NCBI GenBank assembly: GCA_044347345.1
Contig: JBIKUX010000014.1
Coordinates: 9,434-73,433, forward strand
Direction of reading: 5' to 3'
From: Bdellovibrionota bacterium
Lineage (GTDB): Bacteria; Bdellovibrionota_C; UBA2361; JBIKUX01
Length of the DNA stretch: 64,000 nt
A program made the position numbers and the translations under genes. The notes under the pieces are model-generated. The model worked only from the letters and a program-made list of their open reading frames with translations, had not been told where the DNA came from and made no database searches. Shown here piece after piece: positions 8,128 through 62,476 of the stretch (position 1 is the first letter of the stretch; the number at the start of each line of letters is the position of its first letter).

Positions 8128-8391
8128 ATGCTGGAAACTAGTAGAGACTGTAGCCGCAGCGGCACGGACCTGAACGGCACAGGCCAGAACGGCACAGGCC
8201 AGAACGGCACAGGCCAGAACGGCATGGACCCGAACGGCATGGAAGGCCCGACGCGAGAGCAGATCGTGTCTTATCAAAAGAAAACCTATAATGAAGTTCC
8301 AACACAAGCATCATCAGCAAAAACCTATACCGAAACCGATGCCCAGATATACTTCGGTGATACCAAACTACCAGACGGCTATGGAGCTTAA
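8128..8391 (+). CDS. Small hypothetical protein with GTGQN repeats, immediately upstream of wzm
   Basis: 87-aa ORF with a purine-rich upstream stretch; stops 6 nt before the wzm start; the 15-bp repeat preserves the frame. Confidence 0.5.
   Translation: MLETSRDCSRSGTDLNGTGQNGTGQNGTGQNGMDPNGMEGPTREQIVSYQKKTYNEVPTQASSAKTYTETDAQIYFGDTKLPDGYGA
8161..8243. repeat. 15-bp tandem repeat GGCACAGGCCAGAAC (3 perfect + 2.5 degenerate copies)
   Basis: Units at 8161, 8176, 8191, 8206, 8221 and 8236; GC-rich relative to the flanks. Confidence 0.95.
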
Positions 8392-10039: not shown

Positions 10040-10226
10040 AGCCTTAGATACCCAGATCAAAATCAGACAGACAGCAATTTCTTAATGATACGCTATGGGT
10101 AAAACATCAGAAATTCGCGCACCTTCGGGTTTCTAGCAAAAAAATAGCAACTTCTAACTTAATTAAACGAACTATACTTAAATTAATTGATATGTATAAC
10201 CTACGTCTATTAACGAGAGTAAAACT

Positions 10227-10667
10227 ATGCACCAGACACCTGTGATCCAAAAACCCTCAGACCCATTTGAGCAGATTTTATGGCATTTAGAACAGATTAA
10301 TCAAAAACGCTCCTATCGTTGGCCACCCGAACAACTTGAACCACAAGTGAGAGAATTAGCAAGTTTAATAGAGAGTCTTTATCACAATTGGCTTAAAATT
10401 AATAATCATAAAAATTCTACTCAAGAGCATTCTGAGTATTTATATTTTGTACTACCTTACGTAAGTTTTCGGTTACTAAACTATCCTTCCTCAAAAACAA
10501 TAAATATCTTTGAAGCATCTTCCTCGCAAAAAAAGCAATTTCTCGCCTTAATGACAGACGAATTACATGAACTTCCTGACTCAAACTTAGTAAGAGCTCT
10601 CCTCAAAGAATCTTTAAATACTTTACTCACCTTTCTTAAAAGTCTAAAACATCGCTGCGAACAATAG
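10227..10667 (+). CDS. Hypothetical protein (146 aa, probably helical)
   Basis: ATG preceded by GAGAG; fills the gap convergently with the 819-aa gene; no motif recognised. Confidence 0.6.
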   Translation: MHQTPVIQKPSDPFEQILWHLEQINQKRSYRWPPEQLEPQVRELASLIESLYHNWLKINNHKNSTQEHSEYLYFVLPYVSFRLLNYPSSKTINIFEASSSQKKQFLALMTDELHELPDSNLVRALLKESLNTLLTFLKSLKHRCEQ

Positions 10668-10681
10668 GACTCTTCCTAAAT

Positions 10682-13141
10682 TCACGTGTTGTCCCTAAAA
10701 AGATCTTGAAAGGCGTAGGGTGGAGTCATAGTATAAAACCTATTATACCCTATCGAATTTAAAAATTGAGTGATTACACTCCAAACGGGATCCCGATTAA
10801 AATCTTGCTGGTCTGGAGAAATTAATACTACCTTTTTGCCCCTCCTTATTGCGCCAATTATTTCATGAACTGTTCCTATGCCTCCATAATGAAAAAAACA
10901 GGCTCCCAAACCTTCTAAAACTTCATGTAAGCGACGGTGAATAGTTTCTACCACTCTCAATTCCCCATGACCTGATGGGACTTCTCCTGACTCTAGAATG
11001 AGAAGATTGGGCGTAGATACTCCCTTCGGACGAATAACTTGTAATTGACCTTCTTTATCTGCGCATAAGATAAAATTTTGACCAAAAAGACCCATCAAAG
11101 TCTGTGCTGGGAGATGATTTCCAGGCGGACTACCACCACCATCCCAAAATTCTGTAAATTTCTCAGGTTCAGGTATGAAAGGCACCTCTACAGTAAAGAC
11201 TGGCAACTCTTCTAAAGTATCATCATTATTACCAATCTTCTCAATTAATTCGCGGCACTCTAGATCACTTACCGTTTCCCCATTCATCTGCGCTGAAAAA
11301 GTAACTCCCGCAGCCCGATGAAGAGGTAAACCTTGCTGCATCATCTTTTGGATAAACTCTTTTGTGAAGGGAATTTGTTTCTTTTCATAACCTTCTGTAA
11401 GCCACTCTACCAAAGATTTCCAAAATTCTTCGTAATTTTCCAGAACTAATAGAGGCACCTCTGCTTTTGCAGCTCCAAAAAAGCCAAATCCTGATGGTAT
11501 GGTACCTCTATTAACTCCTGAATCTATAAATTCAAGACGATCACATGATAAGTGGAACCCTTTATATGGGAGAGGGCGCGATCCGAAATTTTTGAGTATA
11601 CCATCAAAATCAAAATTTTCTGGGTTTACTATGAGTAAAGAATTTGTGTAAGGGGTTCTATGATTGTTGATAGTTGCCTGCAAAATTTCTTGTACTAAAC
11701 TAACCCACCTATTATTTTGTTCATTTAGCATAATGAGGAGGTGCGCCTGATCACCCACTGCCGAATTTTGAATAACTTGTCCCAATACCAATTCAACAAA
11801 TGCTAAGCCTTCTTCAATTTCGGTATTATTTGGCGGAATGAATAAAAAAACTGCACTGTTTATTAGCGGATCATTAAGAACTTTTTTGTTATGAAGTTCT
11901 AATGCTTCACTTGGTTTAAATTCGCTTAGTTCTGGTCTTAACTGACTAAAATTTTTTATTTCTGCCAGGATACCACAATTTCCGAGAATTTTTGTGCCTA
12001 TAATCGCTACTCGAATCTGCTCTAAATAAGGTGGAAAGTATTGACCTGTAAACGTAGACACATCGTGAGTATAAATTAGCGAATAATTCAAAAGATTTTG
12101 GAAAGCTCTCTGAACCGCATATCCTCCATTTTCAACCGACTCGGGTAAAGGATTACCGTCTCTATCTACAAACAAATTAGATAACTGCGCTAAGCCTAAA
12201 GCATTTGTTCCTGGGTTATCAGCAGGAGTTAGATAAGCTAAAGAAGTACCAGAATTATTGGGTAATTCTTCAAAAGAGCCATTAGGATAAAGCTTTACTC
12301 CAGAAATAAGTGAGTCAAACTTAAATACTAACCTACCTGTGGGTTCTCTTTCTTGTATTTGGAGCTTCTTTTGAAGCTCAGATAACAGATTAAACAATTC
12401 CTGCAATCCAAGATGACTAAAATATTTAGCAGCATGCTCACCAAATAATTTATGACAAACCTCATTTAGATCAATTTGTTCACCATTTTCTGCCTCTATA
12501 CCATCAAGAGCATAATGATGCCAAGCTACGCGCTTAATTACCTCTATTAATTTATTTACTGAACTATTTTGAAAACCTTTTAAATGAGAAGCTGTTAACT
12601 CAACAAACTCAACCCCTTCTTTTTCTTTTTCTTTTTCTAAAAGAAGATAAGTAGAGGTATCTTCTGCAACTATAACTATAGGTGTCCTAAGTAAATTAAT
12701 AGCACATTTTCTTGCTTCCAACCTGCTCTTCTCATCAGGCATATAAGCTTCAATAAGTGGAGGAAGAAGTTGAGTTACCGGCAGAAGATTATTTTTATCT
12801 TCATCACTTGGTTGTGAAAACAACCTATTTTCTTGAAAAAATTCGGTAGCTTGTTCTACTGAAATATACCCTTTATCAGTAAGATTTTGTAATACTAATA
12901 ATAAATGAGCATTAGGAGTGTTAGCAACTTGCTTGCAGCGTTCTAATTTTTGGTTAAGGTTACCTTGATGGGTTTGATTCTCAATTGGTTGAGGAGAAAT
13001 AAGCCAAGGGTGAATGTTTGTCAGTTCACAGAGAATATTCAAACAATACTGTTTAAAATGGTTAGAAGTTAAAAACAAAACTGGTACGTCATAAGGCTCA
13101 TTTATTGGATTTTTTTCAACACTAGAGGTACAACTCAACAT
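10682..13141 (-). CDS. Multidomain protein: HAM1/ITPase-like N-terminus + degenerate LOG-like + LOG/SLOG-like C-terminus
   Basis: 819-aa ORF with VLFLTSNHFK (aa 21-30), KC...PIVIVAEDTS (aa ~145-163), FGFFGAAK, GGG..LMG, VVETIHRR and YGGIGTVHE (aa 752-760) followed by KKVVLI. Domain calls are by eye. Confidence 0.7.
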   Translation of the reverse strand: MLSCTSSVEKNPINEPYDVPVLFLTSNHFKQYCLNILCELTNIHPWLISPQPIENQTHQGNLNQKLERCKQVANTPNAHLLLVLQNLTDKGYISVEQATEFFQENRLFSQPSDEDKNNLLPVTQLLPPLIEAYMPDEKSRLEARKCAINLLRTPIVIVAEDTSTYLLLEKEKEKEGVEFVELTASHLKGFQNSSVNKLIEVIKRVAWHHYALDGIEAENGEQIDLNEVCHKLFGEHAAKYFSHLGLQELFNLLSELQKKLQIQEREPTGRLVFKFDSLISGVKLYPNGSFEELPNNSGTSLAYLTPADNPGTNALGLAQLSNLFVDRDGNPLPESVENGGYAVQRAFQNLLNYSLIYTHDVSTFTGQYFPPYLEQIRVAIIGTKILGNCGILAEIKNFSQLRPELSEFKPSEALELHNKKVLNDPLINSAVFLFIPPNNTEIEEGLAFVELVLGQVIQNSAVGDQAHLLIMLNEQNNRWVSLVQEILQATINNHRTPYTNSLLIVNPENFDFDGILKNFGSRPLPYKGFHLSCDRLEFIDSGVNRGTIPSGFGFFGAAKAEVPLLVLENYEEFWKSLVEWLTEGYEKKQIPFTKEFIQKMMQQGLPLHRAAGVTFSAQMNGETVSDLECRELIEKIGNNDDTLEELPVFTVEVPFIPEPEKFTEFWDGGGSPPGNHLPAQTLMGLFGQNFILCADKEGQLQVIRPKGVSTPNLLILESGEVPSGHGELRVVETIHRRLHEVLEGLGACFFHYGGIGTVHEIIGAIRRGKKVVLISPDQQDFNRDPVWSVITQFLNSIGYNRFYTMTPPYAFQDLFRDNT

Positions 13142-13262
13142 ACATTTACTACAGAAGTCGCGTTAATTTTTGATAAATGGTGTCGCTAAAAAAAATACAA
13201 CTACTTTATCAAAGATAAATAAAATAAAACTAATAATTATTAGTAGCAGAGCATACAGCTTT

Positions 13263-13814
13263 TTATTTAATAAATAAAACTTCATTCGGAAGTTCATTTG
13301 AGTGCCCAGTTCCAGCCTGCCCAGTTCCAGCCTGCACAGTTCCAGACTTAAGTTCAATATTTTTAGTAGGAACTACTTTACTAAGCTCAGAGATAGCACA
13401 AAGAATAGCAGAGACTCCGTCACCATTGGCTAGATTACTAGTTATACTAAAAACAATTTTACTCCCGACATCAGGGGTAACACATGTTAACAAACCTCGG
13501 TCACACAGCAGTTCAACAGCCTTATCAGCAACAAGAATATATAAGAGCACACCATTATTAGTGGCAGTGTCCCAAATATCAAAAAACCTAAATAAGTGCC
13601 TTGCTCGACTTATAATAGGGTCATTTACACATAACTCACTAACTGTAAGGCGAGACTCAATAATTATTCTAAGCTCCGCACTATGCTTTTGTTCAAATAA
13701 TTTTATTGCATCAGTTAATTCTGATAAACGCTCAGATGGAAAAAGTCTCCTAACTTTTGATTCAGTGGTACCAAAATGTTTCAATACACTGGCAAAAAAA
13801 TTTAATCTTACCAT
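13263..13814 (-). CDS. TPM-domain protein (DUF477)
   Basis: AIKLFEQKHSAELRIIIE, RARHLF, TNNGVLLYILVADKAVELLCDRG, C-terminal NELPNE; third gene of lemA-TPM-TPM. Confidence 0.88.
   Translation of the reverse strand: MVRLNFFASVLKHFGTTESKVRRLFPSERLSELTDAIKLFEQKHSAELRIIIESRLTVSELCVNDPIISRARHLFRFFDIWDTATNNGVLLYILVADKAVELLCDRGLLTCVTPDVGSKIVFSITSNLANGDGVSAILCAISELSKVVPTKNIELKSGTVQAGTGQAGTGHSNELPNEVLFIK
13303..13347. repeat. 15-bp tandem repeat TGCCCAGTTCCAGCC x3 (AGTGQ) near the TPM gene 3' end
   Basis: Units at 13303, 13318 and 13333 (last degenerate). Confidence 0.9.
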
Positions 13815-15881: not shown

Positions 15882-16959
15882 TAAAACTAGTAGCAATAAA
15901 ACTAAGGTCGAAAAAACTAAAAATATGACCTCACAATCCATAAAATGGATTATTCGTAGTGTGATACTGCTTGGGATTTTTTGGGTAGGATGTAGTTACA
16001 TCTTTTTTTTCGTTCAACACTCGTTTCTTTTACCTATAACCTCGGTAAATCAAGAAGAACTAAAATTCCTCATAGAGATACCTAAAAACTCAGACTTTAA
16101 AAAAGTAGCCAAAAACCTTGAACAAAAAGGCTTAATTCGTCATTGGTGGACTCTGTATCTACTCGCTCGACTCACCGGACAAGACCGAGATCTATCTGCT
16201 GGAGAATTTGAAATATCCTCTGCAATGAACGTTCCTGAGATATTGAATCGTCTCATAAATGGTCCAGCCTTTAGACGCCGAGTGCTTATTCGTGAAGGTA
16301 CAAAAGTAGATGAACTACCGCCACTTTTTGAAATGGCTGGCATAATATCAGCGCTGGAACTTAGAAAAGCATTATCAGATAAAAAGCTGCAAGTAGATTT
16401 AGGAATCCCAGCTGAAGCGCCTAGCTTTGAAGGCTATCTTTTCCCAGATACTTATTTTTTCTCAAGACCAATTGCAGGAAAAGAAATCTTAAGACGCTTG
16501 ATTTTAGAAGGAAGAAAAAAATGGAGTCCTGAATGGGAATTAGCTAGACAAAACAAGCAATTTTCTCTTCACCAAATACTAACCTTAGCTTCTATTATTG
16601 AGAAAGAATCGGGTAATTTCAACGAACAGCCACTCATTGCATCTGTATTTTATAATCGCTTATCACGAGGAATGAGACTCCAAAGTGATCCTACTGTAAT
16701 TTATGGAATCCCAAATTTTAATGGCAATCTAACTCGTTTTGATTTAACAAATCCCTCTCCCTACAACACTTACGTTATAAATGGCTTGCCACCTGGCCCG
16801 ATAGCTAATCCAGGAACTTCAGCCATAAAAGCGGCTCTTTTTCCCCAAACAACTCTTTATCTATATTTTGTTGCAGATGGTACCGGCAAGCACATATTCT
16901 CAAAAACACTCGCCGAACATAATCAAGCAGTAAACTTTTATCAACGGAAAAACTCTTGA
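15823..16959 (+). CDS. mltG: Endolytic transglycosylase MltG
   Basis: N-terminal TM helix, EGYLFPDTY, LASIIEKE, VFYNRL, LQSDPTVIYG, GLPPGPIANPG. The start is probably a downstream ATG. Confidence 0.95.
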   Translation: MKSIYASIIVMKTKEKIPPNKTSSNKTKVEKTKNMTSQSIKWIIRSVILLGIFWVGCSYIFFFVQHSFLLPITSVNQEELKFLIEIPKNSDFKKVAKNLEQKGLIRHWWTLYLLARLTGQDRDLSAGEFEISSAMNVPEILNRLINGPAFRRRVLIREGTKVDELPPLFEMAGIISALELRKALSDKKLQVDLGIPAEAPSFEGYLFPDTYFFSRPIAGKEILRRLILEGRKKWSPEWELARQNKQFSLHQILTLASIIEKESGNFNEQPLIASVFYNRLSRGMRLQSDPTVIYGIPNFNGNLTRFDLTNPSPYNTYVINGLPPGPIANPGTSAIKAALFPQTTLYLYFVADGTGKHIFSKTLAEHNQAVNFYQRKNS

Positions 16960-18878
16960 ATAAAACGGATCCATCTAATCTTCTTCGCAAGGTTGCGCGG
17001 CGATTATTATTCCAAACCACGCGCGAAAAAATTATGATTGCTTTTGCCCTCTGTTTAGGGGGCGGATTAAGCATTTTTTCCGTCTGCGCTCTATTTATAA
17101 ACTTCAACACGCTGAGTAAATCATGGTGGTGGCCTTTTACTCTAGGTATGCTAGGAATTGGCGTAACAATACTTATAATATGGCTCAAAAAAGGCTTTAA
17201 GCTAGATCTCTACAGCGCGGCAAATAAAATTGATAACACCTTCAATCTTAAAAACCGCCTAGGAAGCTTTGTTGCTCTTGAAATCGCTAAGTCATCACAA
17301 AATAATCATTCCTCCAACAAACATACTGCAATCATACAATCCGTCATCCTAAATCAGCTCAACAGTTCTTTACCCAAAGAAGCAATAATACTTAAAAAAG
17401 TATCGCCTCTTAACTTATCAAAAGCTGAGCGAAGATACTTAATTTTTATCGTATTTGTAAGTTGTATTTTGTTAGCTTTAATGGCTTTTCAAGCAAATGT
17501 ATCTATAGTTACTAATAATTTGCTTCCTAATTTAGAATTATCACTTCCTCACCCATTGTTACAAAATGAGACTCGAACAGCCGAGGCTGTTCAGGAGATT
17601 AAAACCTTACTTGAGAATCACCCTGACCTACCTGAAGCTGTTAAAAATGCCTTTACTAATCTTAGTCAAGAACTAACAAAGCCAATCCCAGAAAATGAAA
17701 AAGTAATAACTACGTTACAAAACACTTTAAATGCTATAGATACAGCTAAGGCATCAGATCAACAGAAAAAGTCCGAACCCTCTCCTCGTCCTACATCTAT
17801 TCCTAGATCTACTCCTATATCTACTCCTACATCTATTCCTATATCTACTCCTACTCTACCGTCTTCTCCTACTAAAGAAACCATTAGTACGCCGACCCCC
17901 AATTCAAATTCAAATTCATCACAGAAATCACAGGATCCTGATCAAAAAAACTCAGCTCAAAATTCAAGTAATAACCAAGAGGAAAAGAGCCAGCAAGGAG
18001 ATGCAAATACCAAAGAAGCAGATCAACCAAATAATGCTGGCAAAGAGGCTGAAGACACTTCCAAAAACTCGCAATCAGAAAAAGGAGGGGAGAATAAAAA
18101 TAAAGGGGAGCAAGATAAAAAAAGTAATGGTAACGGTGAGAAGAAGGAAGAAACAGCCAATAAAGATGGTGGTAAAGCCGATGACCAAAATCAAAAATCC
18201 GATTCAAAAAATAATTCAAATGCAAAAGCACTCGATAAAGCCTCTGAGCTTGCCCAAAAACTCTCAGGCTCTAAATCAGAAAGCACCCCTCAAGAAAATA
18301 ATAGTTCAGGTCAAAAACTAAGCGAATCAAATACCCAATCACAAGAAAATAAGGCTGGCGAAAAAGATTCAGACAATAAAGACAATAAAGAGCAAGAAAA
18401 GGGAAATAACAAAAACAACGGAGATAAACCAACTGACTCAAACTCAAACAACAAACAACCATCCCCCTCGTCAACTTCCTCATCAACTCAACAAGACGAA
18501 GAGTCACAAAATAGTAACGATAGCCCTAAACCTCCTAGCTCATCAGAGCCTCGAGATGCTCCCACACTCGGAGGTGAGGCAAACTCTAAACTCACCGACT
18601 CAGAAAAAGAAGCAAAGAGATTTATAGAGGATGGAGAAACTCCTCTAAGCTCTGATGAATTTGAACGAAACAAGAGATTTAAAGAGTCAATTATACAAGA
18701 AAGTGAGGATCAAATTGATCCATCTAAAGCTACTGAGGCAAGCGGAGAGATTGAAGGACTGGGCAGTACTCTTCCAAAAACCAGTATTGAGAAAATTCGC
18801 CGTGAGAAACCTGAGCTACTGAATAGAAGTAGCAATCAGGAAATTCCCCTTGAGTATAAAGATACTTTACAAGATTAA
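16956..18878 (+). CDS. Membrane protein with a long low-complexity Q/N/S/K/E region, first gene of the MoxR cluster
   Basis: Three N-terminal hydrophobic segments, 'LKNRL' motif, polar disordered region and C-terminal IPLEYK, resembling proteins found in MoxR operons. Confidence 0.7.
   Translation: MNKTDPSNLLRKVARRLLFQTTREKIMIAFALCLGGGLSIFSVCALFINFNTLSKSWWWPFTLGMLGIGVTILIIWLKKGFKLDLYSAANKIDNTFNLKNRLGSFVALEIAKSSQNNHSSNKHTAIIQSVILNQLNSSLPKEAIILKKVSPLNLSKAERRYLIFIVFVSCILLALMAFQANVSIVTNNLLPNLELSLPHPLLQNETRTAEAVQEIKTLLENHPDLPEAVKNAFTNLSQELTKPIPENEKVITTLQNTLNAIDTAKASDQQKKSEPSPRPTSIPRSTPISTPTSIPISTPTLPSSPTKETISTPTPNSNSNSSQKSQDPDQKNSAQNSSNNQEEKSQQGDANTKEADQPNNAGKEAEDTSKNSQSEKGGENKNKGEQDKKSNGNGEKKEETANKDGGKADDQNQKSDSKNNSNAKALDKASELAQKLSGSKSESTPQENNSSGQKLSESNTQSQENKAGEKDSDNKDNKEQEKGNNKNNGDKPTDSNSNNKQPSPSSTSSSTQQDEESQNSNDSPKPPSSSEPRDAPTLGGEANSKLTDSEKEAKRFIEDGETPLSSDEFERNKRFKESIIQESEDQIDPSKATEASGEIEGLGSTLPKTSIEKIRREKPELLNRSSNQEIPLEYKDTLQD
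17790..17858. repeat. 12-bp tandem repeat (CCTAnATCTAyT), 5+ copies encoding PTSI/PIST
   Basis: Units at 17790, 17802, 17814, 17826 and 17838. Confidence 0.9.
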
Positions 18879-33221: not shown

Positions 33222-34610
33222 GTGACAATACTTGCAGGTAAATATCAACTTATAGGAGAACTAGGTGAAGGTAGTACGGGTAAGGTATTTCTCGTTCAAC
33301 ACCCAGACCTTAATGTAAAATATGCCCTCAAGGTTCTACATAATACCTTTTCTGATAATCCTTTATTCGTCGAACAATTTAAACGAGAAGCGGAGCTTCT
33401 CCTTCGTTTTACTCACGAAGGATGTGTACAACTTCGAGATTTTGGACGGCTTGAAAGTGGTTCATATTTCATGGCTACAGACTACTGTGAAGGAGAAACT
33501 TTAAAGAATAGGCTTAAAAGAGGTGGCGCACTTGATACTGAACATGCTCTTAATCTGCTAATTCAACTCCTTGATGTACTAAGTGCCGCTCATGCACGGG
33601 GAATAATCCACAGAGATATTAAACCCGATAACATCATCATAGAAGCCGGATATCAAGGAAAAGAGATAATCAAAGTACTGGATTTTGGTATTGCACAATT
33701 ACTTGAACTTGATCGGTCTAAAGATGACAACAATAGCGAGGATTATAACGAAGAACTAACTGTTGGCACCCCTGGCTATATGTCACCAGAGCAAGCCTAT
33801 GGAGAAAGAGACCTAGATCATCGTGTCGACATATATGCCACCGCAATTATAGCTTATGAGATGTTAACCGGTGTTCCACCCTATAGTGGAGATTCGCCAG
33901 AGGAAATATTACTTGCACATGTAACCAAACTACCTGACCCTTTTGCTGCTCGATTAGGCTTACCAACAATTCTTGAAAAGCTAGTCTTCAAAGGTATGGA
34001 AAAATCGAGACAGAAAAGATTTAGTTCTGCCACTGCATTTAAACAAGAGCTCACAAACGCTCTTTCTTTATTGACTGAAACTAACGCTCTTTCAAGGATA
34101 AATGTTAAATTGGATACTTCCCAACAGGATATCTTAATTATTCATCCAGACCCCGTCGTTAAATCCTCATCCTCAAATGAAGAAAAAGCACAAACTAACA
34201 ATCAAACAGGCACAGTAGTTTCACGTATCCTTATTCTAGATGACGAAGACACTTTGCTTACTCTTACTTCTCATATCTTGCAACTTGCTGGATACGAAGT
34301 ATTTACAGCTAGTAACGTGACAGAAACGCATAGATTTTTGGTACATGAACAAGTAGATTTATTGATAACTGATGTACAGATGCCAGATATGCCTGGGTGG
34401 AAAGTATGTAAGATGCTCAAAGCCTCGCTTCCAAACCTTAGAGTGATCCTTTTTTCTACTCTGGATTCTGGAATGCTTGCAAAATTAACTTTAGATAGTG
34501 GTGCCGATGGTTGGATTTCAAAAATGACTCCACCTAAACAGTGGTTACCTTTAATAAAAGAAGTACTTAGCAAACCATCGGGTAGCTTATTGCGAAGGCG
34601 CCGTGAATAG
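33222..34610 (+). CDS. Hanks-type Ser/Thr protein kinase with C-terminal receiver domain
   Basis: GEGSTG, ALK, HRDIKPDN, DFG, GTPGYMSPE; C-terminal ILILDDE...LITDVQMP...ISK. Confidence 0.92.
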   Translation: MTILAGKYQLIGELGEGSTGKVFLVQHPDLNVKYALKVLHNTFSDNPLFVEQFKREAELLLRFTHEGCVQLRDFGRLESGSYFMATDYCEGETLKNRLKRGGALDTEHALNLLIQLLDVLSAAHARGIIHRDIKPDNIIIEAGYQGKEIIKVLDFGIAQLLELDRSKDDNNSEDYNEELTVGTPGYMSPEQAYGERDLDHRVDIYATAIIAYEMLTGVPPYSGDSPEEILLAHVTKLPDPFAARLGLPTILEKLVFKGMEKSRQKRFSSATAFKQELTNALSLLTETNALSRINVKLDTSQQDILIIHPDPVVKSSSSNEEKAQTNNQTGTVVSRILILDDEDTLLTLTSHILQLAGYEVFTASNVTETHRFLVHEQVDLLITDVQMPDMPGWKVCKMLKASLPNLRVILFSTLDSGMLAKLTLDSGADGWISKMTPPKQWLPLIKEVLSKPSGSLLRRRRE

Positions 34611-55417: not shown

Positions 55418-56968
55418 ATGGAGAATTCAAAACCCAAAATTCCTGATGATGTTACAATTTATGCTAATACTGCCCTAGCAACAGATAACGAATTACCCTC
55501 TAACCAACCAGACTCTTTCAGCAAAAATATACTTCAAGCGTGGGAGAAAACTAAAGACCAGTTAAGACAAGAGCTAGATGAACAAATATTTCATGGCTAC
55601 ATAAGCCCTATTCATTTCGGCTTTGTCGATGTCGAGTCTGGCATTCTAACTCTTAGAGGTCCAAGCAGATTTATAATTGGGCAAGTTGAAAAAAATTTTT
55701 CAACAAAGATTAGTAATATTCTCAGTTCGATTCTGAAAGCAGAATTTTTAATAAATTTTGTTATTGCTGAAGAAGCACCCCAAGAGCGTAATCAACGCTA
55801 TATGGTCGTAAAAAAATTCCCTGTTTCAAGTAATTCAGAACAAAATCTATCAAATCAACCTAATATTTCACCTGCTAAAAACTCCACATCTGTAGAACTG
55901 CCTAATGGTGTATCAGAGGTATCATCTGCTTCCATAGCTGACTCTCAACTTAACAATCGTTATCATTTTGAAAATTTTGTCGTTGGAAATAGCAATCAAT
56001 TTTGCCATGCCGCCTCTCTACGTGTCGCTGAGCGACCCGGACAAAGTTACAATCCGTTATTCATCTATGGTGGTGTCGGATTAGGTAAAACTCATCTTCT
56101 TCATGCTATTGGCAATGAAGTTCTTCGTCGCGACCCAAAAAAGAAAGTTTTATATCTATCAGCTGAAGCTTTTACAAACGAGCTAATTTTAGCTTTACGA
56201 CACGCTAAAATGGATGAATTTAAAAAAAAATTAAGAACAATAGAAGTTCTTTTAATTGATGATATTCAATTCATTAGTGGCAAGGAACGCACTCAAGAGG
56301 AATTTTTTCATACTTTCAATACTCTTTACGGAGCTAAACATCAGATAGTTTTAACATCTGACAAAATGCCCTCAGAAATTCATGGAATAGAAGAGAGACT
56401 TCAAACTAGATTTTCATGGGGACTAACTGCTGACATTCAAGCGCCAGATTTTGAGACCAGAGTAGCCATTTTAAAACGCAAAGCTGAATCTGAATCTTTT
56501 ATAATACCAGAGGAAGTAGCACATTTTATCGCTGATCAGATATCATCTAACGTTAGAGAGCTAGAGGGTGCTCTTACTCGTCTACATGCGGTATGTAGCC
56601 TTCGTAATGTAAAAATATCCTTGGATGTAGCTAAAAATGCTCTTTCACCAATTCTTGTTGGAAAGCCTATTCAGCTTACTGTAGAGGATATAAAAGTCCA
56701 GGTGGCAGAGCAGTTTAGACTAAAGGTTTCAGACATTGTTTCCAAACGTCGTACAAGAAATTTATCTTTTCCACGACATATAGCAATGTACTTGTGTAGA
56801 AAACACACTACGGCTTCTTATCCAGAAATTGGTGAGCAATTTGGAGGAAGGGATCACTCTAGTGTTATACATGCGGCGCATGTAGTAGCTACAAAGCTAC
56901 CAAACGATCCTCAATTAAAAGAAGTAATCGAAATTATAGAGCGTCGCCTTTTTTCAAGAGATAGTTAG
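55418..56968 (+). CDS. dnaA: Chromosomal replication initiator DnaA
   Basis: FENFVVGNSN, YNPLFIYGGVGLGKTHL, IDDIQF, NVRELEGAL, FGGRDHSSVIHA. Confidence 0.98.
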   Translation: MENSKPKIPDDVTIYANTALATDNELPSNQPDSFSKNILQAWEKTKDQLRQELDEQIFHGYISPIHFGFVDVESGILTLRGPSRFIIGQVEKNFSTKISNILSSILKAEFLINFVIAEEAPQERNQRYMVVKKFPVSSNSEQNLSNQPNISPAKNSTSVELPNGVSEVSSASIADSQLNNRYHFENFVVGNSNQFCHAASLRVAERPGQSYNPLFIYGGVGLGKTHLLHAIGNEVLRRDPKKKVLYLSAEAFTNELILALRHAKMDEFKKKLRTIEVLLIDDIQFISGKERTQEEFFHTFNTLYGAKHQIVLTSDKMPSEIHGIEERLQTRFSWGLTADIQAPDFETRVAILKRKAESESFIIPEEVAHFIADQISSNVRELEGALTRLHAVCSLRNVKISLDVAKNALSPILVGKPIQLTVEDIKVQVAEQFRLKVSDIVSKRRTRNLSFPRHIAMYLCRKHTTASYPEIGEQFGGRDHSSVIHAAHVVATKLPNDPQLKEVIEIIERRLFSRDS

Positions 56969-56987
56969 TTTTTCAAGAGATAGTTAG
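56950..56987. repeat. Perfect 19-bp tandem duplication TTTTTCAAGAGATAGTTAG including the dnaA stop codon
   Basis: Copies at 56950-56968 and 56969-56987. Confidence 0.95.
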
Positions 56988-57578
56988 TATAAATAAACCA
57001 TTGTTCGTTATTGAAAATAAATTAACACATAAGGTTATTCTTTTTTATTTTAAATTTTTGTAAAAAGTTTTTACTGACCTTGAAGTACCTTGATGTAAAA
57101 GAGTACAGTCTCCAGAGTTAGGATAACAGAAACATCTATTGTTAAAATTTAATTGGAAAGAAAATAAATCTGATAAAAAACTTTAAAGAAACTTAAACAT
57201 AAGTTTAACATCATAGGATGCTCAAAATAAATTAATTACCTGATTAATAAAAATTATTAATCACAGGTGTTATTATCTGTGGAAATCTTCCGTAAGTAGT
57301 TTTTATTACACTTTAATTTCCGGTAAATCTTGTGGATAATTAGGAATAAACTGTAATTTCTACTCTAAGTTATTCACAATAGATTTAAAGTTTTAGAAGG
57401 AAGTTCGAATTACCTTTTTAAAATGGTAAAAGTAAGTTAGATTTAAACACGTTTTCCACAATAAAATAAAAAACATTTGTATTAAATTCAAATAATTAAG
57501 TGACTTTTACCTGAGTTCTTTTCTCTCTACTACAACAACTATTTATAAATATTAATATTATTAATTAGGAATAGGGTA
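56969..57578. other. oriC: Chromosomal replication origin (oriC)
   Basis: Very AT-rich dnaA-dnaN spacer. DnaA boxes TGTGGATAA 57331-57339, TTATTCACA 57370-57378, TTTTCCACA 57452-57460; near-matches at 57257 and 57278. Trio-like CTACTACAACAACTA 57527-57541 followed by a pure A/T run. Strand skew changes here. Confidence 0.88.
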
Positions 57579-58694
57579 ATGAAATTTTTAATTCCACAAG
57601 TTAGTTTATCTAAAATTGTAAATCTTGGACAAAGTGTGGCAGATAAAAGAAATACAATGCCAATTTTGTATAATTTTAAATTGGAAGTTTTTGACGGATT
57701 ATTAAAAATTATAGCTTCCGATCTTGAAGTAACGTTAGTTCAACAAATTAATGTCTCTGAAGCACAAAATGGTGCTATAGCAGTTAACGCAAAAACATTT
57801 ACTGAAGGAATTAACGAACTTCCTGAAGGGCTTGTTTCAATACAGGTAATTGATAGAAATAGATTACTTGTAGAATGTGAATCTACTTCTCTTAAGTTTG
57901 TTGGATATTCTGCAAATGAATATCCAACTCCGCCAGGTATTGATCTTTTTACTTCATCATTAATTGATGGAAAACGATTTGAACAAATGTTGCGAAAAAC
58001 TATTTTCGCTGCATCCGTTGATGAAACTAGATTTAATTTAAATGCTGTTTGTATGGTATCTTTAAAAGATGAAAATTCTTTAAAGATGGTTGCAACTGAT
58101 GGATATAGACTTGCGGTTGCTATTCAAAATATTGAAGATCTACAGATCTTAGAACAAATTCTTGTCCCTAGAAAAGGAATAATCGAATTAAGGAAATTAC
58201 TAGGAGATGAAATAAATAAAAAAGATATAAAAATAGGAGTAACTAAGGAATTTTTGATTCTTGAAACACCAGATGCAAAACTTGCTATAAGATTAATTGA
58301 TAGTGAGTTTCCTGAATATCAGCAAGCTATACCTCAAGGTCAATGTGAATTAGTAGTAGTAGATGCTACTTTATTTAGTAATGCTCTAAGAAGAGTTTCT
58401 TTAGTAATTACCGATAAAGGTAAAGGAGCTAAGTTTCATTTTGAAGGTAACACTCTTTTGTTATCGGCTTCATCAGCTGAATTGGGAGACGCTGAAGATG
58501 AAGTACCTATAAATTATAGTGGTGCTCCCTTAACTATCGGATTTAATGCACGTTATTTATCTGATCTTGTTCAAGCTTATGGTGAGACCGGACCTCTTCA
58601 TATAGAACTTAGAGGCCCGTTTGCAGCAACCAAGTTTTTTTCTCCAGATGATCAAAATGCTTTTGGAATTGTCATGCCTATGCGTATTGATTAA
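57579..58694 (+). CDS. dnaN: DNA polymerase III beta clamp
   Basis: TMPIL, ASDLEV, VATDGYRLA, VPRKG, RLIDSEFPEY, IGFNARYL, VMPMRI. Confidence 0.97.
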   Translation: MKFLIPQVSLSKIVNLGQSVADKRNTMPILYNFKLEVFDGLLKIIASDLEVTLVQQINVSEAQNGAIAVNAKTFTEGINELPEGLVSIQVIDRNRLLVECESTSLKFVGYSANEYPTPPGIDLFTSSLIDGKRFEQMLRKTIFAASVDETRFNLNAVCMVSLKDENSLKMVATDGYRLAVAIQNIEDLQILEQILVPRKGIIELRKLLGDEINKKDIKIGVTKEFLILETPDAKLAIRLIDSEFPEYQQAIPQGQCELVVVDATLFSNALRRVSLVITDKGKGAKFHFEGNTLLLSASSAELGDAEDEVPINYSGAPLTIGFNARYLSDLVQAYGETGPLHIELRGPFAATKFFSPDDQNAFGIVMPMRID

Positions 58695-58699
58695 GTCGT

Positions 58700-59815
58700 G
58701 TGCAAATAAAAAGTCTATCAGTTTGTAATTTTCGTAATTTAAGATCTGGTAATTATTGTTTTGGTCCCGGTGTAAATGTATTTATAGGGGCTAATGGGCA
58801 AGGAAAAACCAGCCTAATTGAAGCTTGTATTATTGCGGCTGCTGGTCGATCTTTTCGCACATCTCGTCTAAGTGAAGCGATTACATTTGGTAGTAAGTTA
58901 GCAACGGTTCGGGTAAGCTTTAACGATGCTATAGGTCTTAGGTGTGTTGGGACAACTTGGGGGCATCGAAGTTCAAGATTAGTGGAAGTAGATGGTAAGG
59001 AAGAAGTTAAGGCTTCCTCTGTCGTTGGATTGTTACCATTTGTGCTTTTTACTCCATCAGATTCTGATTTGGTTAAAGGGTCTTCTTTGGCTAGGCGTAA
59101 TCTACTTGATAAGCATATAGTAGATGTAGAGCCACGAATTATTGATTCTGTGGTTAGATATCGGAGAGCTGTTCGTCAAAAATTATCATTATTGAAAAGT
59201 GGAAATGCTAATTCAATAAATATTTTGCCATGGAATTTAGTTCTTGCTAGAGAGGGAGCAATTATTTGGCGGGTAAAGCGAAAAATACTGAGGGGGATTT
59301 GTGAAAGAACTTCATTAATGTACAAAATTTTAGCTCCATCAGAAGAGAATCTAGAAGTAAAAATTGTATCTCAGCTTGCATCTGATATTTTAGATTCTGA
59401 GATTGAGGCTTTTTTTCAAAATAAATTACAAGAAGGAGTTTTAAAGGAAATTTCGACTGGTAGAGTCCTAATAGGACCTCATCGAGATGATTTAAATTTT
59501 CTTCTTGATTCACATGATATGCGTGTTTTTGCCTCTCAAGGTCAACTTAGGACGGCTGCTCTTGCATTAAAACTAGCTTCAGTTGGTCAGATTGAGCAAG
59601 CTAGAGGTGAGCCTCCATTAGTTTTTCTCGATGACGTACTTTCGGAACTTGATTTATTTCGTGTTAGGGCTCTTGGAGCGCAACTTATCGCTAGTTCTTG
59701 TCAAGTATTTGTAACTACTACTGATTTATCTTACTCTAGTTTTGATGTACCAACAAAAGGCAATGTTTTTTATGAGATAATTAGTGGTACTATTAACCCA
59801 AGTTCGATAAATTGA
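58700..59815 (+). CDS. recF: DNA replication/repair protein RecF
   Basis: NFRN, GANGQGKT, SFRT, GPHRDD, ASQGQ, LDDVLSELD. Confidence 0.95.
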   Translation: MQIKSLSVCNFRNLRSGNYCFGPGVNVFIGANGQGKTSLIEACIIAAAGRSFRTSRLSEAITFGSKLATVRVSFNDAIGLRCVGTTWGHRSSRLVEVDGKEEVKASSVVGLLPFVLFTPSDSDLVKGSSLARRNLLDKHIVDVEPRIIDSVVRYRRAVRQKLSLLKSGNANSINILPWNLVLAREGAIIWRVKRKILRGICERTSLMYKILAPSEENLEVKIVSQLASDILDSEIEAFFQNKLQEGVLKEISTGRVLIGPHRDDLNFLLDSHDMRVFASQGQLRTAALALKLASVGQIEQARGEPPLVFLDDVLSELDLFRVRALGAQLIASSCQVFVTTTDLSYSSFDVPTKGNVFYEIISGTINPSSIN

Positions 59816-59908
59816 AGTATTTATTAACGTTAAATATACTTTAGTAATCGATTTTATGAGCTTAGGTAGGTTACTTTAGGGTGTATTAAATACGATACGA
59901 GATAATAA

Positions 59909-62476
<2,568 letters not shown>

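Follow-up and report, generated by a model that had tools for sequence, protein, structure and literature searches.

The 819-aa open reading frame

The window analysed here is a 64,000-nucleotide stretch of contig JBIKUX010000014.1 from an uncultured freshwater bacterium of the Bdellovibrionota, and the gene in question is a single open reading frame (ORF), P0001, which occupies positions 10682..13141 of the minus strand, stop codon included, and encodes a protein of 819 amino acids (aa). Judging from its sequence, this protein is most naturally classed with the LOG/SLOG nucleotide-processing proteins, as a very divergent multidomain variant that falls below the formal family threshold. The ORF was reported in a preliminary description of this DNA and is confirmed by the ORF listing and by translation; all 14 of the sequence strings quoted there occur once each at the residues given, and K145, E160, D161 and E760 are likewise as described. 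Given the local base composition, a run of 819 codons would lack a stop with a probability of about 2e-27, and the frame is therefore not a chance one. Ranked against 1079 long ORFs from this genome, it lies at the 92nd percentile for synonymous codon usage and at the 6th for GC content (36.6%). The ORF is a real gene, as is borne out by this genome-typical codon usage and by a partial orthologue on another contig, L161, which is intact over 408 codons. An AT-rich spacer of 121 bp (13142..13262, minus strand), in which a promoter is possible, separates the ORF from a TPM-domain gene. The ORF showed no clear ribosome-binding site or promoter, and a promoter and terminator scan around it gave no score above those of shuffled sequences.

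Four segments can be told apart along the protein, and their positions and those of the motifs within them are all on the minus strand. Residues 16-76 (12914..13096) form a segment with a weak likeness to HAM1/ITPase (inosine triphosphate pyrophosphatase) proteins that is detected by hhalign and HMMER. Residues 77-418 (11888..12913), which include K145, E160-D161-T-S and the strand-like RVAIIGT, are unassigned, with no Pfam family and no HAM1 signal. They are followed by a conserved middle module (residues 419-600; 11342..11887) that threads weakly onto LOG and would then be a catalytically dead repeat, and by a putative LOG/SLOG-type Rossmann domain (residues 605-819; 10685..11329) that is recognised by PF03641, the ESM Atlas, hhalign and its conservation in L161.

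The C-terminal domain and the middle module

A LOG/SLOG-type domain at the C-terminus, with its predicted catalytic pair kept and its base pocket changed, is supported by several concordant lines of evidence of weak to moderate strength, and here the preliminary description, which had proposed a LOG domain with the Arg and Glu retained, stands. PF03641 (LOG, 'Lysine_decarbox') is the sole Pfam family to match the whole protein (E 1.1e-3, 19.6 bits). Residues 541-819 searched alone match it with E 9.2e-5 and 23.1 bits, PF18306 (SLOG cluster 4) being the second family listed for them (E 0.17), and the L161 orthologue matches PF03641 at the same motif (E 0.011, 16.3 bits). In a hidden Markov model (HMM) search with a model built from 30 LOG relatives, residues 541-819 outscore 1000 of 1000 shuffles, and the hhalign LOG score of the C-terminal domain is reached by one natural decoy segment among 280 taken from this genome; a two-sequence profile that includes L161 aligns to LOG with P 0.0013. 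LOG/SLOG clusters head the feature matches in the ESM Atlas (0.82, to be read as a lead only), and the Atlas model of residues 534/541/544-819 superimposes on LOG proteins in structural rows 1-3 with template modelling (TM) scores of 0.70, 0.46 and 0.60 by row, the first covering 177 aligned residues of a model with a mean predicted local distance difference test (pLDDT) score of 0.47. The sole match in a PDB sequence search is 1rcu_A (E 1), which shares about 40 residues of the form G-x-I-G-T-x-x-E-I-x-G-A ... G-K-x-V-x-L. The best hhalign match of the domain also falls on the glycine-rich motif in five of six long LOG proteins from the same order, each match being weak on its own (P 0.021-0.26).

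Three motifs are brought into register by these alignments. D667-G-G-G670 (11132..11143) corresponds in hhalign to the nucleotide-binding loop of LOG, at its GGG, and is followed, after a 7-residue insertion, by L-M-G at 682-684. I734-H-R-R737-L738 (10928..10942), also placed by hhalign, occupies the position of M-H-E-R-K, and G753-G-I-G-T-V-H-E760 (10862..10885), which is recovered by Pfam, HMM and hhalign alike, is the counterpart of PGGxGTxxE, every position of which is kept except the Pro, where the protein has Tyr752. The first and third of these motifs are invariant in L161, as are H735 and R737 of the second. In the LOG protein of Corynebacterium glutamicum (CgLOG), Arg99 and Glu122 are described as the proposed catalytic residues and Met96, Lys100 and Glu121 as contacts of the adenine. 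The Arg99-Glu122 spacing of 23 residues is also that between R737 and E760, both invariant in L161, which are the candidate catalytic arginine and glutamate of the 819-aa protein. The base-contacting positions are changed, with I734 standing for Met, L738 for Lys and H759 for Glu.

The middle module aligns weakly to the same family. With the two-sequence profile, residues 419-610 match LOG in hhalign with P 0.0098, P549-S-G-F-G-F ... V-P-L-L-V-L-E-N-Y-E-E-F-W being placed on the LOG glycine motif, the strand that follows it and the Y/W helix, and a greedy hhalign run with residues 366-610 threads 386-599 over 182 LOG columns (P 0.024). In the module Ser/Cys stands at the Arg position, neither the Thr nor the Glu is kept, and P-S-G-F-G-F is what is left of the glycine-rich motif. 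A Smith-Waterman self-comparison of five segments gave no convincing internal repeat (the best results being reached by 4/200 and 10/200 shuffles). The arrangement that is weakly supported by the profile comparisons is one in which a compact live LOG domain (605-819) follows a dead LOG-like repeat at about residues 420-600. The preliminary description had placed a degenerate LOG at residues 370-525; a second LOG-like module does find weak backing, but these boundaries have no profile support and the best ones lie at about 420-600. It had also begun the live domain with LOG strand 1 at residues 552-557, followed by an 80-residue insertion, a parse that fits the start of the Atlas alignment (534-544) better. 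Neither parse is preferred here; if the compact one is taken, the string FGFFGAAK would be the relic glycine-rich motif of the dead repeat and not strand 1 of the live domain.

A number of observations weigh against this interpretation of the C-terminal half. The PF03641 score of 23.1 bits lies below the gathering cut-off of 27, and the 819-aa ORF is missing from the list when the genome is searched with PF03641 in six frames at E <= 0.01. A narrow LOG HMM ranks the protein only 6th of the 2138 ORFs of the genome, a result which indicates that this profile is too narrow for a fair test. The mean pLDDT of the Atlas model is low and its feature scores stay below 0.9, while the single-sequence AlphaFold2 model of residues 366-819 reaches a pLDDT of 37.6 and retrieves only generic alpha/beta and AAA-type chains when compared with the PDB by Foldseek (TM <= 0.35); since neither alignment-free AlphaFold2 run was usable (pLDDT 37), the LOG fold rests on the low-confidence Atlas model. 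As regards the dead repeat, the LOG score of residues 366-540 is reached by 221 of 1000 shuffles (hhalign P 0.63) and that of the middle module is equalled by 9 of 280 natural decoys, which makes the support for it weak. Furthermore, the ratio of nonsynonymous to synonymous substitution rates (dN/dS) of the gene, 0.49, speaks of only partial constraint, and the Tyr in place of the Pro of PGG together with the three base-binding changes could mean that the domain is a non-catalytic sensor.

The N-terminal region and the ITPase question

The N-terminal part of the protein had been proposed to be a HAM1/ITPase module, and of this proposal a reproducible weak signal in residues 16-76 survives. Residues 18-76 align in hhalign to columns 3-72 of a profile of 28 HAM1 relatives (score 23.4, P 0.013), with T25, N27, K30, E54, T57, N61, K65 and P76 on conserved HAM1 columns, and none of 200 shuffles reaches this score, nor does any of 215 natural decoys of 365 aa taken from this genome (maximum 21.4). 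A wider profile of 43 HAM1 sequences gives an hhalign score of 24.4 (P 0.0087), and HMMER finds the same region with 2.6 bits (P 0.0045). A composite HAM1 motif drawn up post hoc occurs in 2 of the 2138 ORFs of the genome, namely the canonical HAM1 gene and the 819-aa ORF, compared with about 0.1 matches per shuffled proteome, and it is present in 19 of the 43 HAM1 proteins; the E-to-T spacing is one residue short in the 819-aa protein. All of these tests score the motifs that prompted the idea, and their P values are uncorrected for the many families that could have been named.

The remainder of the proposed module does not hold up. Pfam searches of residues 1-365, 1-200 and 270-365 at E <= 10 return nothing, and the HMM of the 28 relatives scores the protein at -1.4 bits, 370th of the 2138 ORFs, with that score reached by 15 of 1000 shuffles for residues 1-110 and by 62 of 1000 for residues 1-365. 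Searched in six frames with PF01725, the genome yields only the canonical HAM1 gene, on another contig. The acidic (D/E)-D-(S/T)-G-L motif was not found after P76, a HAM1 signal is missing from residues 77-365 (P 0.32-0.39), and no counterpart was found for the motifs of the second half of HAM1 (the G-F-G-Y-D-P-type loop and S/T-H-R). An Atlas search with residues 1-365 gave no usable feature match and no HAM1 among its structural rows, and the single-sequence AlphaFold2 model of the same residues has a pLDDT of 37.4. K145 and E160-D161, which had been named as HAM1 residues, are not in the places expected of them, as the alignment uses K65 and E160-D161 lie 84 residues past P76, unaligned to the acidic motif. 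A derivation of residues 16-76 from a HAM1-type phosphate-binding element is possible on these alignments, if doubtful.

Were that derivation real, the protein could work as a tandem enzyme in which an ITPase-like head converts a nucleoside triphosphate (NTP) to the nucleoside monophosphate (NMP) and pyrophosphate and the LOG domain converts the latter to base and ribose 5-phosphate, so that a (non-canonical) NTP would be taken to its base within one chain. This would be a compact NTP-to-base degradation machine, analogous to NUDIX-LOG fusions but made of different parts. Pyrophosphatase-LOG fusions do exist, as a 51-member Atlas cluster with NUDIX and LOG shows (structural row 2), three genomes of the order join HAM1 to an IMPDH-like barrel, and the match of residues 16-76 lies above all shuffles and natural decoys tested. 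The tandem is nevertheless an unlikely account of the protein, given that the N-terminal part lacks a Pfam match and ranks low with an HMM score that shuffles attain, that the acidic motif and the second half of HAM1 were not found and the residues proposed for them are misplaced, that the Atlas search of residues 1-365 is without HAM1, that the hypothesis and its uncorrected tests share the same motifs, and that the genome already has a canonical HAM1.

The HAM1-IMPDH fusions just mentioned are proteins of 750-789 aa (L033:3332-5701, plus strand; L034:1870-4212, minus strand; L035:3300-5552, minus strand). They comprise an N-terminal PF01725 domain (E 1e-29 in L033), about 250 unannotated residues and a C-terminal IMPDH/GMP-reductase-like TIM barrel (PF00478, E 7e-17), and could be purine-nucleotide sanitising or conversion fusions.

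Relatives and rate of evolution

The 819-aa protein was initially regarded as an orphan, and in large protein and genome searches it remains one. A search of 5.8 billion protein clusters, at near and shorter lengths, returned only its own 167-aa fragment, as did phmmer through all 1.84 billion representatives. There is no real match in a comparison set of 40 genomes, all of the same order, in which the source genome is the sole representative of its family; pattern scans of genome, metagenome and viral contigs gave no match, phmmer against 272 ORFs from related loci gave nothing, NCBIfam, PADLOC and PHROGs gave nothing meaningful, and phmmer against the PDB gave chance matches only. The label of orphan is nearly right, the exception being one partial orthologue, L161, which was reached by walking out from homologues of a conserved 146-aa neighbour. 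The gene for this neighbour lies at 10227..10667 on the plus strand, convergent to the 819-aa ORF, and its stop is 14 bp from the stop of the latter. L161 carries a 5'-open ORF of 408 aa that is 55% identical (211/384 aligned residues) to residues 419-819 and that is again convergent beside a 146-aa homologue (87% identical), the same arrangement as in the window. The case illustrates how a conserved neighbour can serve as the starting point from which a fast-evolving 'orphan' is tied to a relative.

Comparison with L161 gives a dN of 0.38 and a dS of 0.76 for the 819-aa gene, which is under partial constraint, and the dN/dS rises to 0.79 for residues 541-610. The adjacent 146-aa gene has a dN of 0.06, a dS of 0.67 and a dN/dS of 0.09 between the same two contigs. 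Conservation within the 819-aa protein is uneven. Residues 669-768, with 68-80% identity to L161, are its best-conserved part, residues 444-493 are 68% identical, and residues 494-518, 644-668 and 769-818 are only 28-32% identical. The strong conservation of residues 444-493 suggests that the middle module does something, and a gene that is constrained in blocks and free elsewhere accounts for the failure of sequence searches.

The 146-aa protein has homologues in metagenomes at 87% and 57-59% identity and shows the invariant pattern W-H-L ... S-F-R-L ... V-R-A-L-x-K-E-S-L; searches against Pfam, PADLOC and PHROG assign it to no family. A 20-kb contig, L162, which encodes a homologue of 59% identity, has a trypsin-like protease in place of the 819-aa gene, and by reading no ORF of at least 120 aa resembling the 819-aa protein was found in the 11.3 kb examined. 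The 146-aa gene is therefore not an obligate partner of the 819-aa gene, and the latter, found in the source genome and L161 and not at L162, is confined to a narrow lineage.

Genomic setting and occurrence

The source genome amounts to 2.53 Mb in 68 contigs and is 95.8% complete, and its GyrB is at most 55% identical to that of metagenome-assembled genomes labelled Deltaproteobacteria, Binatia, Oligoflexia or Bdellovibrionota. The window, with dnaA, gyrB, secA, topA and mnmG, belongs to the core chromosome. The region of dnaA and gyrB (55418-62476) contains a turn in the cumulative GC skew at about 57 kb, and GC content falls to 32% at 56-58 kb; from these sequence features the replication origin probably lies within the window. 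The 819-aa locus, about 43 kb from dnaA, is flanked on one side by an ABC-2 exporter pair and the convergent 146-aa gene and on the other by a same-strand LemA-TPM-TPM trio followed by RuvX, MltG and a MoxR operon, and with GalE and MPG these make up a neighbourhood of housekeeping and envelope genes. The LemA-TPM-TPM trio is conserved in 8/8 orthologous loci of relatives, and the gene downstream of it differs each time (SRAP, methyltransferase, HhH-GPD, FG-GAP, NadA and two of unknown nature), so that the 819-aa gene has no positional counterpart there. An Rfam scan of the window found no RNA family.

Two tandem arrays with a 15-bp unit lie on opposite strands at 8160-8239 (5.3 copies) and 13303-13345 (2.9 copies) and flank a stretch of about 5 kb with the ABC exporter, the 146-aa gene and the 819-aa gene. 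Both encode (N/A)-G-T-G-Q repeats in frame with an ORF, and the second forms the C-terminal tail of a 183-aa TPM protein. Directly upstream of the MoxR AAA+ operon is a 640-aa ORF (16956-18878, plus strand) without a Pfam family that combines a transmembrane-looking start with a long low-complexity tail rich in Ser, Pro, Asn, Lys and Glu. Elsewhere in the window, positions 33222-34610 (plus strand) encode a Ser/Thr kinase domain (PF00069) fused to a C-terminal receiver domain (PF00072).

Fourteen sequencing runs contain at least half of the sampled words of the locus. Nine of these may be the source sample, and the five further runs, which come from five studies and are labelled as lake-water or freshwater metagenome, contain 74-96% of the words. 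One of the five, the DNA run X12 of another study, is identical to the 819-aa locus over the pieces compared and consequently offers no population variation for a selection test. Contigs of three RNA libraries from two studies are 100% identical to the window at 10214-10921, 10476-10723, 12242-12469 and 11185-11441; since DNA carry-over is possible and the contigs do not tell the strand, these matches are only a weak hint that the 819-aa gene is transcribed, and stretches of the gene without cover in the RNA libraries carry no information.

Proposed function and alternative explanations

LOG/SLOG domains serve as nucleotide N-glycosidases, in cytokinin activation and in PpnN, or as immune nucleotide sensors. 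Taking the evidence as a whole, the 819-aa protein is, on balance and by a modest degree of confidence, explained as a lineage-restricted LOG/SLOG multidomain protein with a dead repeat and an accessory N-terminus. It would be cytoplasmic, it evolves fast, and its working part would be the C-terminal Rossmann domain (residues ~605-819), which appears to have kept the glycine-rich phosphate-binding loops as well as R737 and E760. In LOG enzymes the Arg/Glu pair cuts the N-glycosidic bond of a nucleoside 5'-monophosphate. The domain would most likely bind a nucleotide and hydrolyse it, with release of ribose 5-phosphate and the free base. Its preference among bases would not be that of cytokinin-type LOGs because I734, L738 and H759 stand at the base-contacting positions.

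The module at residues ~420-600 is probably a dead LOG-like repeat. CgLOG's active site is described as forming at the dimer interface, and PpnN as a nucleosidase of LOG type that its flanking domains gate, one of these resembling part of a LOG monomer. By analogy with these two proteins the dead repeat may be an in-chain stand-in for the second subunit of a LOG dimer, or a ligand-binding gate like the PAG domains of PpnN. The first 418 residues may have a regulatory or accessory role, and the weak ITPase-like phosphate-binding signature of residues 16-76 could mark a nucleotide-binding or pyrophosphatase head. A more ambitious version, in which one chain combines a highly diverged ITPase-like head with a LOG repeat that is dead and a LOG nucleosidase that is live, takes a (modified) NTP to its free base and evolves fast because of a conflict, be it phage defence or predator-prey interaction, appears improbable.

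The preliminary description had also considered a role in defence or nucleotide depletion. The background to that idea is sound, as SLOG clades are described as ranging from enzymes to sensors, ThsA of the Thoeris system as using a SLOG sensor, and KomB of the Kongming system as a HAM1-type protein that responds to dITP. On this account the SLOG-type, and perhaps the HAM1-like, parts of the protein would sense a signalling or modified nucleotide and trigger an unrecognised effector within residues 77-418, or would themselves deplete a nucleotide pool. The gene does evolve fast, with 55% identity and a dN/dS of 0.49 against 87% and 0.09 for its neighbour in the same genome pair, it has a patchy presence (source genome and L161, and not the L162 site, the 40 genomes of the order or any of the 8/8 LemA-TPM-TPM loci), and its GC content is low. 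All three properties fit a role in conflict, but they fit any dispensable lineage-specific gene equally well, and the context of the gene lends the idea no support. The locus lies on the core chromosome among housekeeping neighbours whose PADLOC matches are only generic ABC and AAA ATPase similarities, and the 146-aa neighbour occurs without the 819-aa gene. Neither the 819-aa protein nor its L161 orthologue matches PADLOC, the 2023 release of which predates Kongming and has no KomB models. There is no recognisable effector domain, with no SIR2 or TIR in Pfam, no phage family among the PHROGs and no viral contig match. The codon usage is native, and that the catalytic Arg/Glu pair is kept would be expected of an enzyme more than of a pure sensor. 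An anti-phage or similar conflict protein therefore seems a rather poor candidate. Least likely is a decaying or functionless lineage-specific gene in which the LOG-like motif is a relic, for although the dN/dS values of 0.49 overall and 0.79 for residues 541-610, the lack of detected relatives beyond one close lineage and the absence of a clear ribosome-binding site or promoter would suit it, neither the 819 codons here nor the 408 in L161 are interrupted despite a dS of 0.76, conservation is concentrated in the ligand-binding motifs (68-80% versus 28% in linkers), and the sequence is identical over the compared pieces in a DNA run of another study.

Comparison with known systems

No title or listing retrieved in a literature search describes a HAM1-LOG fusion or tandem LOG repeats of this type, and the 819-aa protein is a candidate for biochemical characterisation and not evidence of a new system. 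Thoeris ThsA and Kongming KomBC differ from it in that no SIR2 or other effector and no partner genes were matched at the 819-aa locus, the PADLOC version of 2023 being without Kongming models. With the HAM1/ITPase proteins (PF01725; RdgB) it shares an N-terminal [ST]-x-N-x-x-K followed by E, T, N and K near the canonical spacing and in the right place in the chain, but it attains no family-level score, and D-D-S-G-L and the second half of the family were not found. Members of SLOG cluster 4 (PF18306) and the Thermotoga protein 1rcu have in common with it about 40 residues of the form R-x-x ... G-I-G-T-x-x-E-I-x-G-A ... G-K-x-V-x-L, at E values of 0.17 and 1 that make them leads only. The structure 1rcu we take to be a member of the SLOG superfamily.

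Six long LOG proteins of 547-799 aa are encoded in genomes of the same order (L066:2697-5096, L067:2276-4543, L070:2150-4261, L068:1806-3449, L069:1706-3361 and L071:2134-3792). Like the 819-aa protein, they have a LOG domain with the signature motifs, a degenerate second LOG-like region (judged by eye) and long stretches without Pfam families; their LOG domains number one or two, and large insertions occur in them. In L071 the degenerate repeat apparently comes first and the catalytic one last, and L070 also falls below the Pfam cut-off (25.4 bits). They show no phmmer similarity to the 819-aa protein, and hhalign finds similarity at the level of motifs only (P 0.018-0.26), so that the likeness shown is confined to the shared domain. 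Moreover, two Pfam-matched stretches are present only in L068 and L069 (2/6), and none of the six has the HAM1-like N-terminal motif set.

PpnN (YgdH), described as a (p)ppGpp-gated NMP nucleosidase of Proteobacteria, resembles the 819-aa protein in holding a LOG-type domain within a larger chain with flanking domains, which in PpnN are described as controlling access, and a PpnN-type cluster appears in structural rows 4-5 of the Atlas search with TM scores by row of 0.48-0.54. It differs in that neither DUF4478 (PAG1) nor DUF3412 (PAG2) is found in the 819-aa protein at E <= 10, and in that its catalytic domain is central, whereas that of the 819-aa protein is C-terminal in a chain almost twice as long. 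The LOG family proper (PF03641/TIGR00730), as exemplified by the C. glutamicum protein Cg2612, has in common with the 819-aa protein the G-G-x-G-T-x-x-E motif, the preceding H-x-R, the GGG loop and the 23-residue Arg-Glu spacing. The 819-aa protein departs from it in its score below the Pfam cut-off, in the Tyr for the Pro of PGG, in the Ile, Leu and His of its base/prenyl pocket, in the 7-residue insertion after GGG and in a domain that ends an 819-aa chain, compared with a homodimeric LOG enzyme of roughly 200 aa. Measured against this family, the protein would show that a LOG domain can drift past routine annotation and billion-sequence searches while keeping its predicted catalytic pair.

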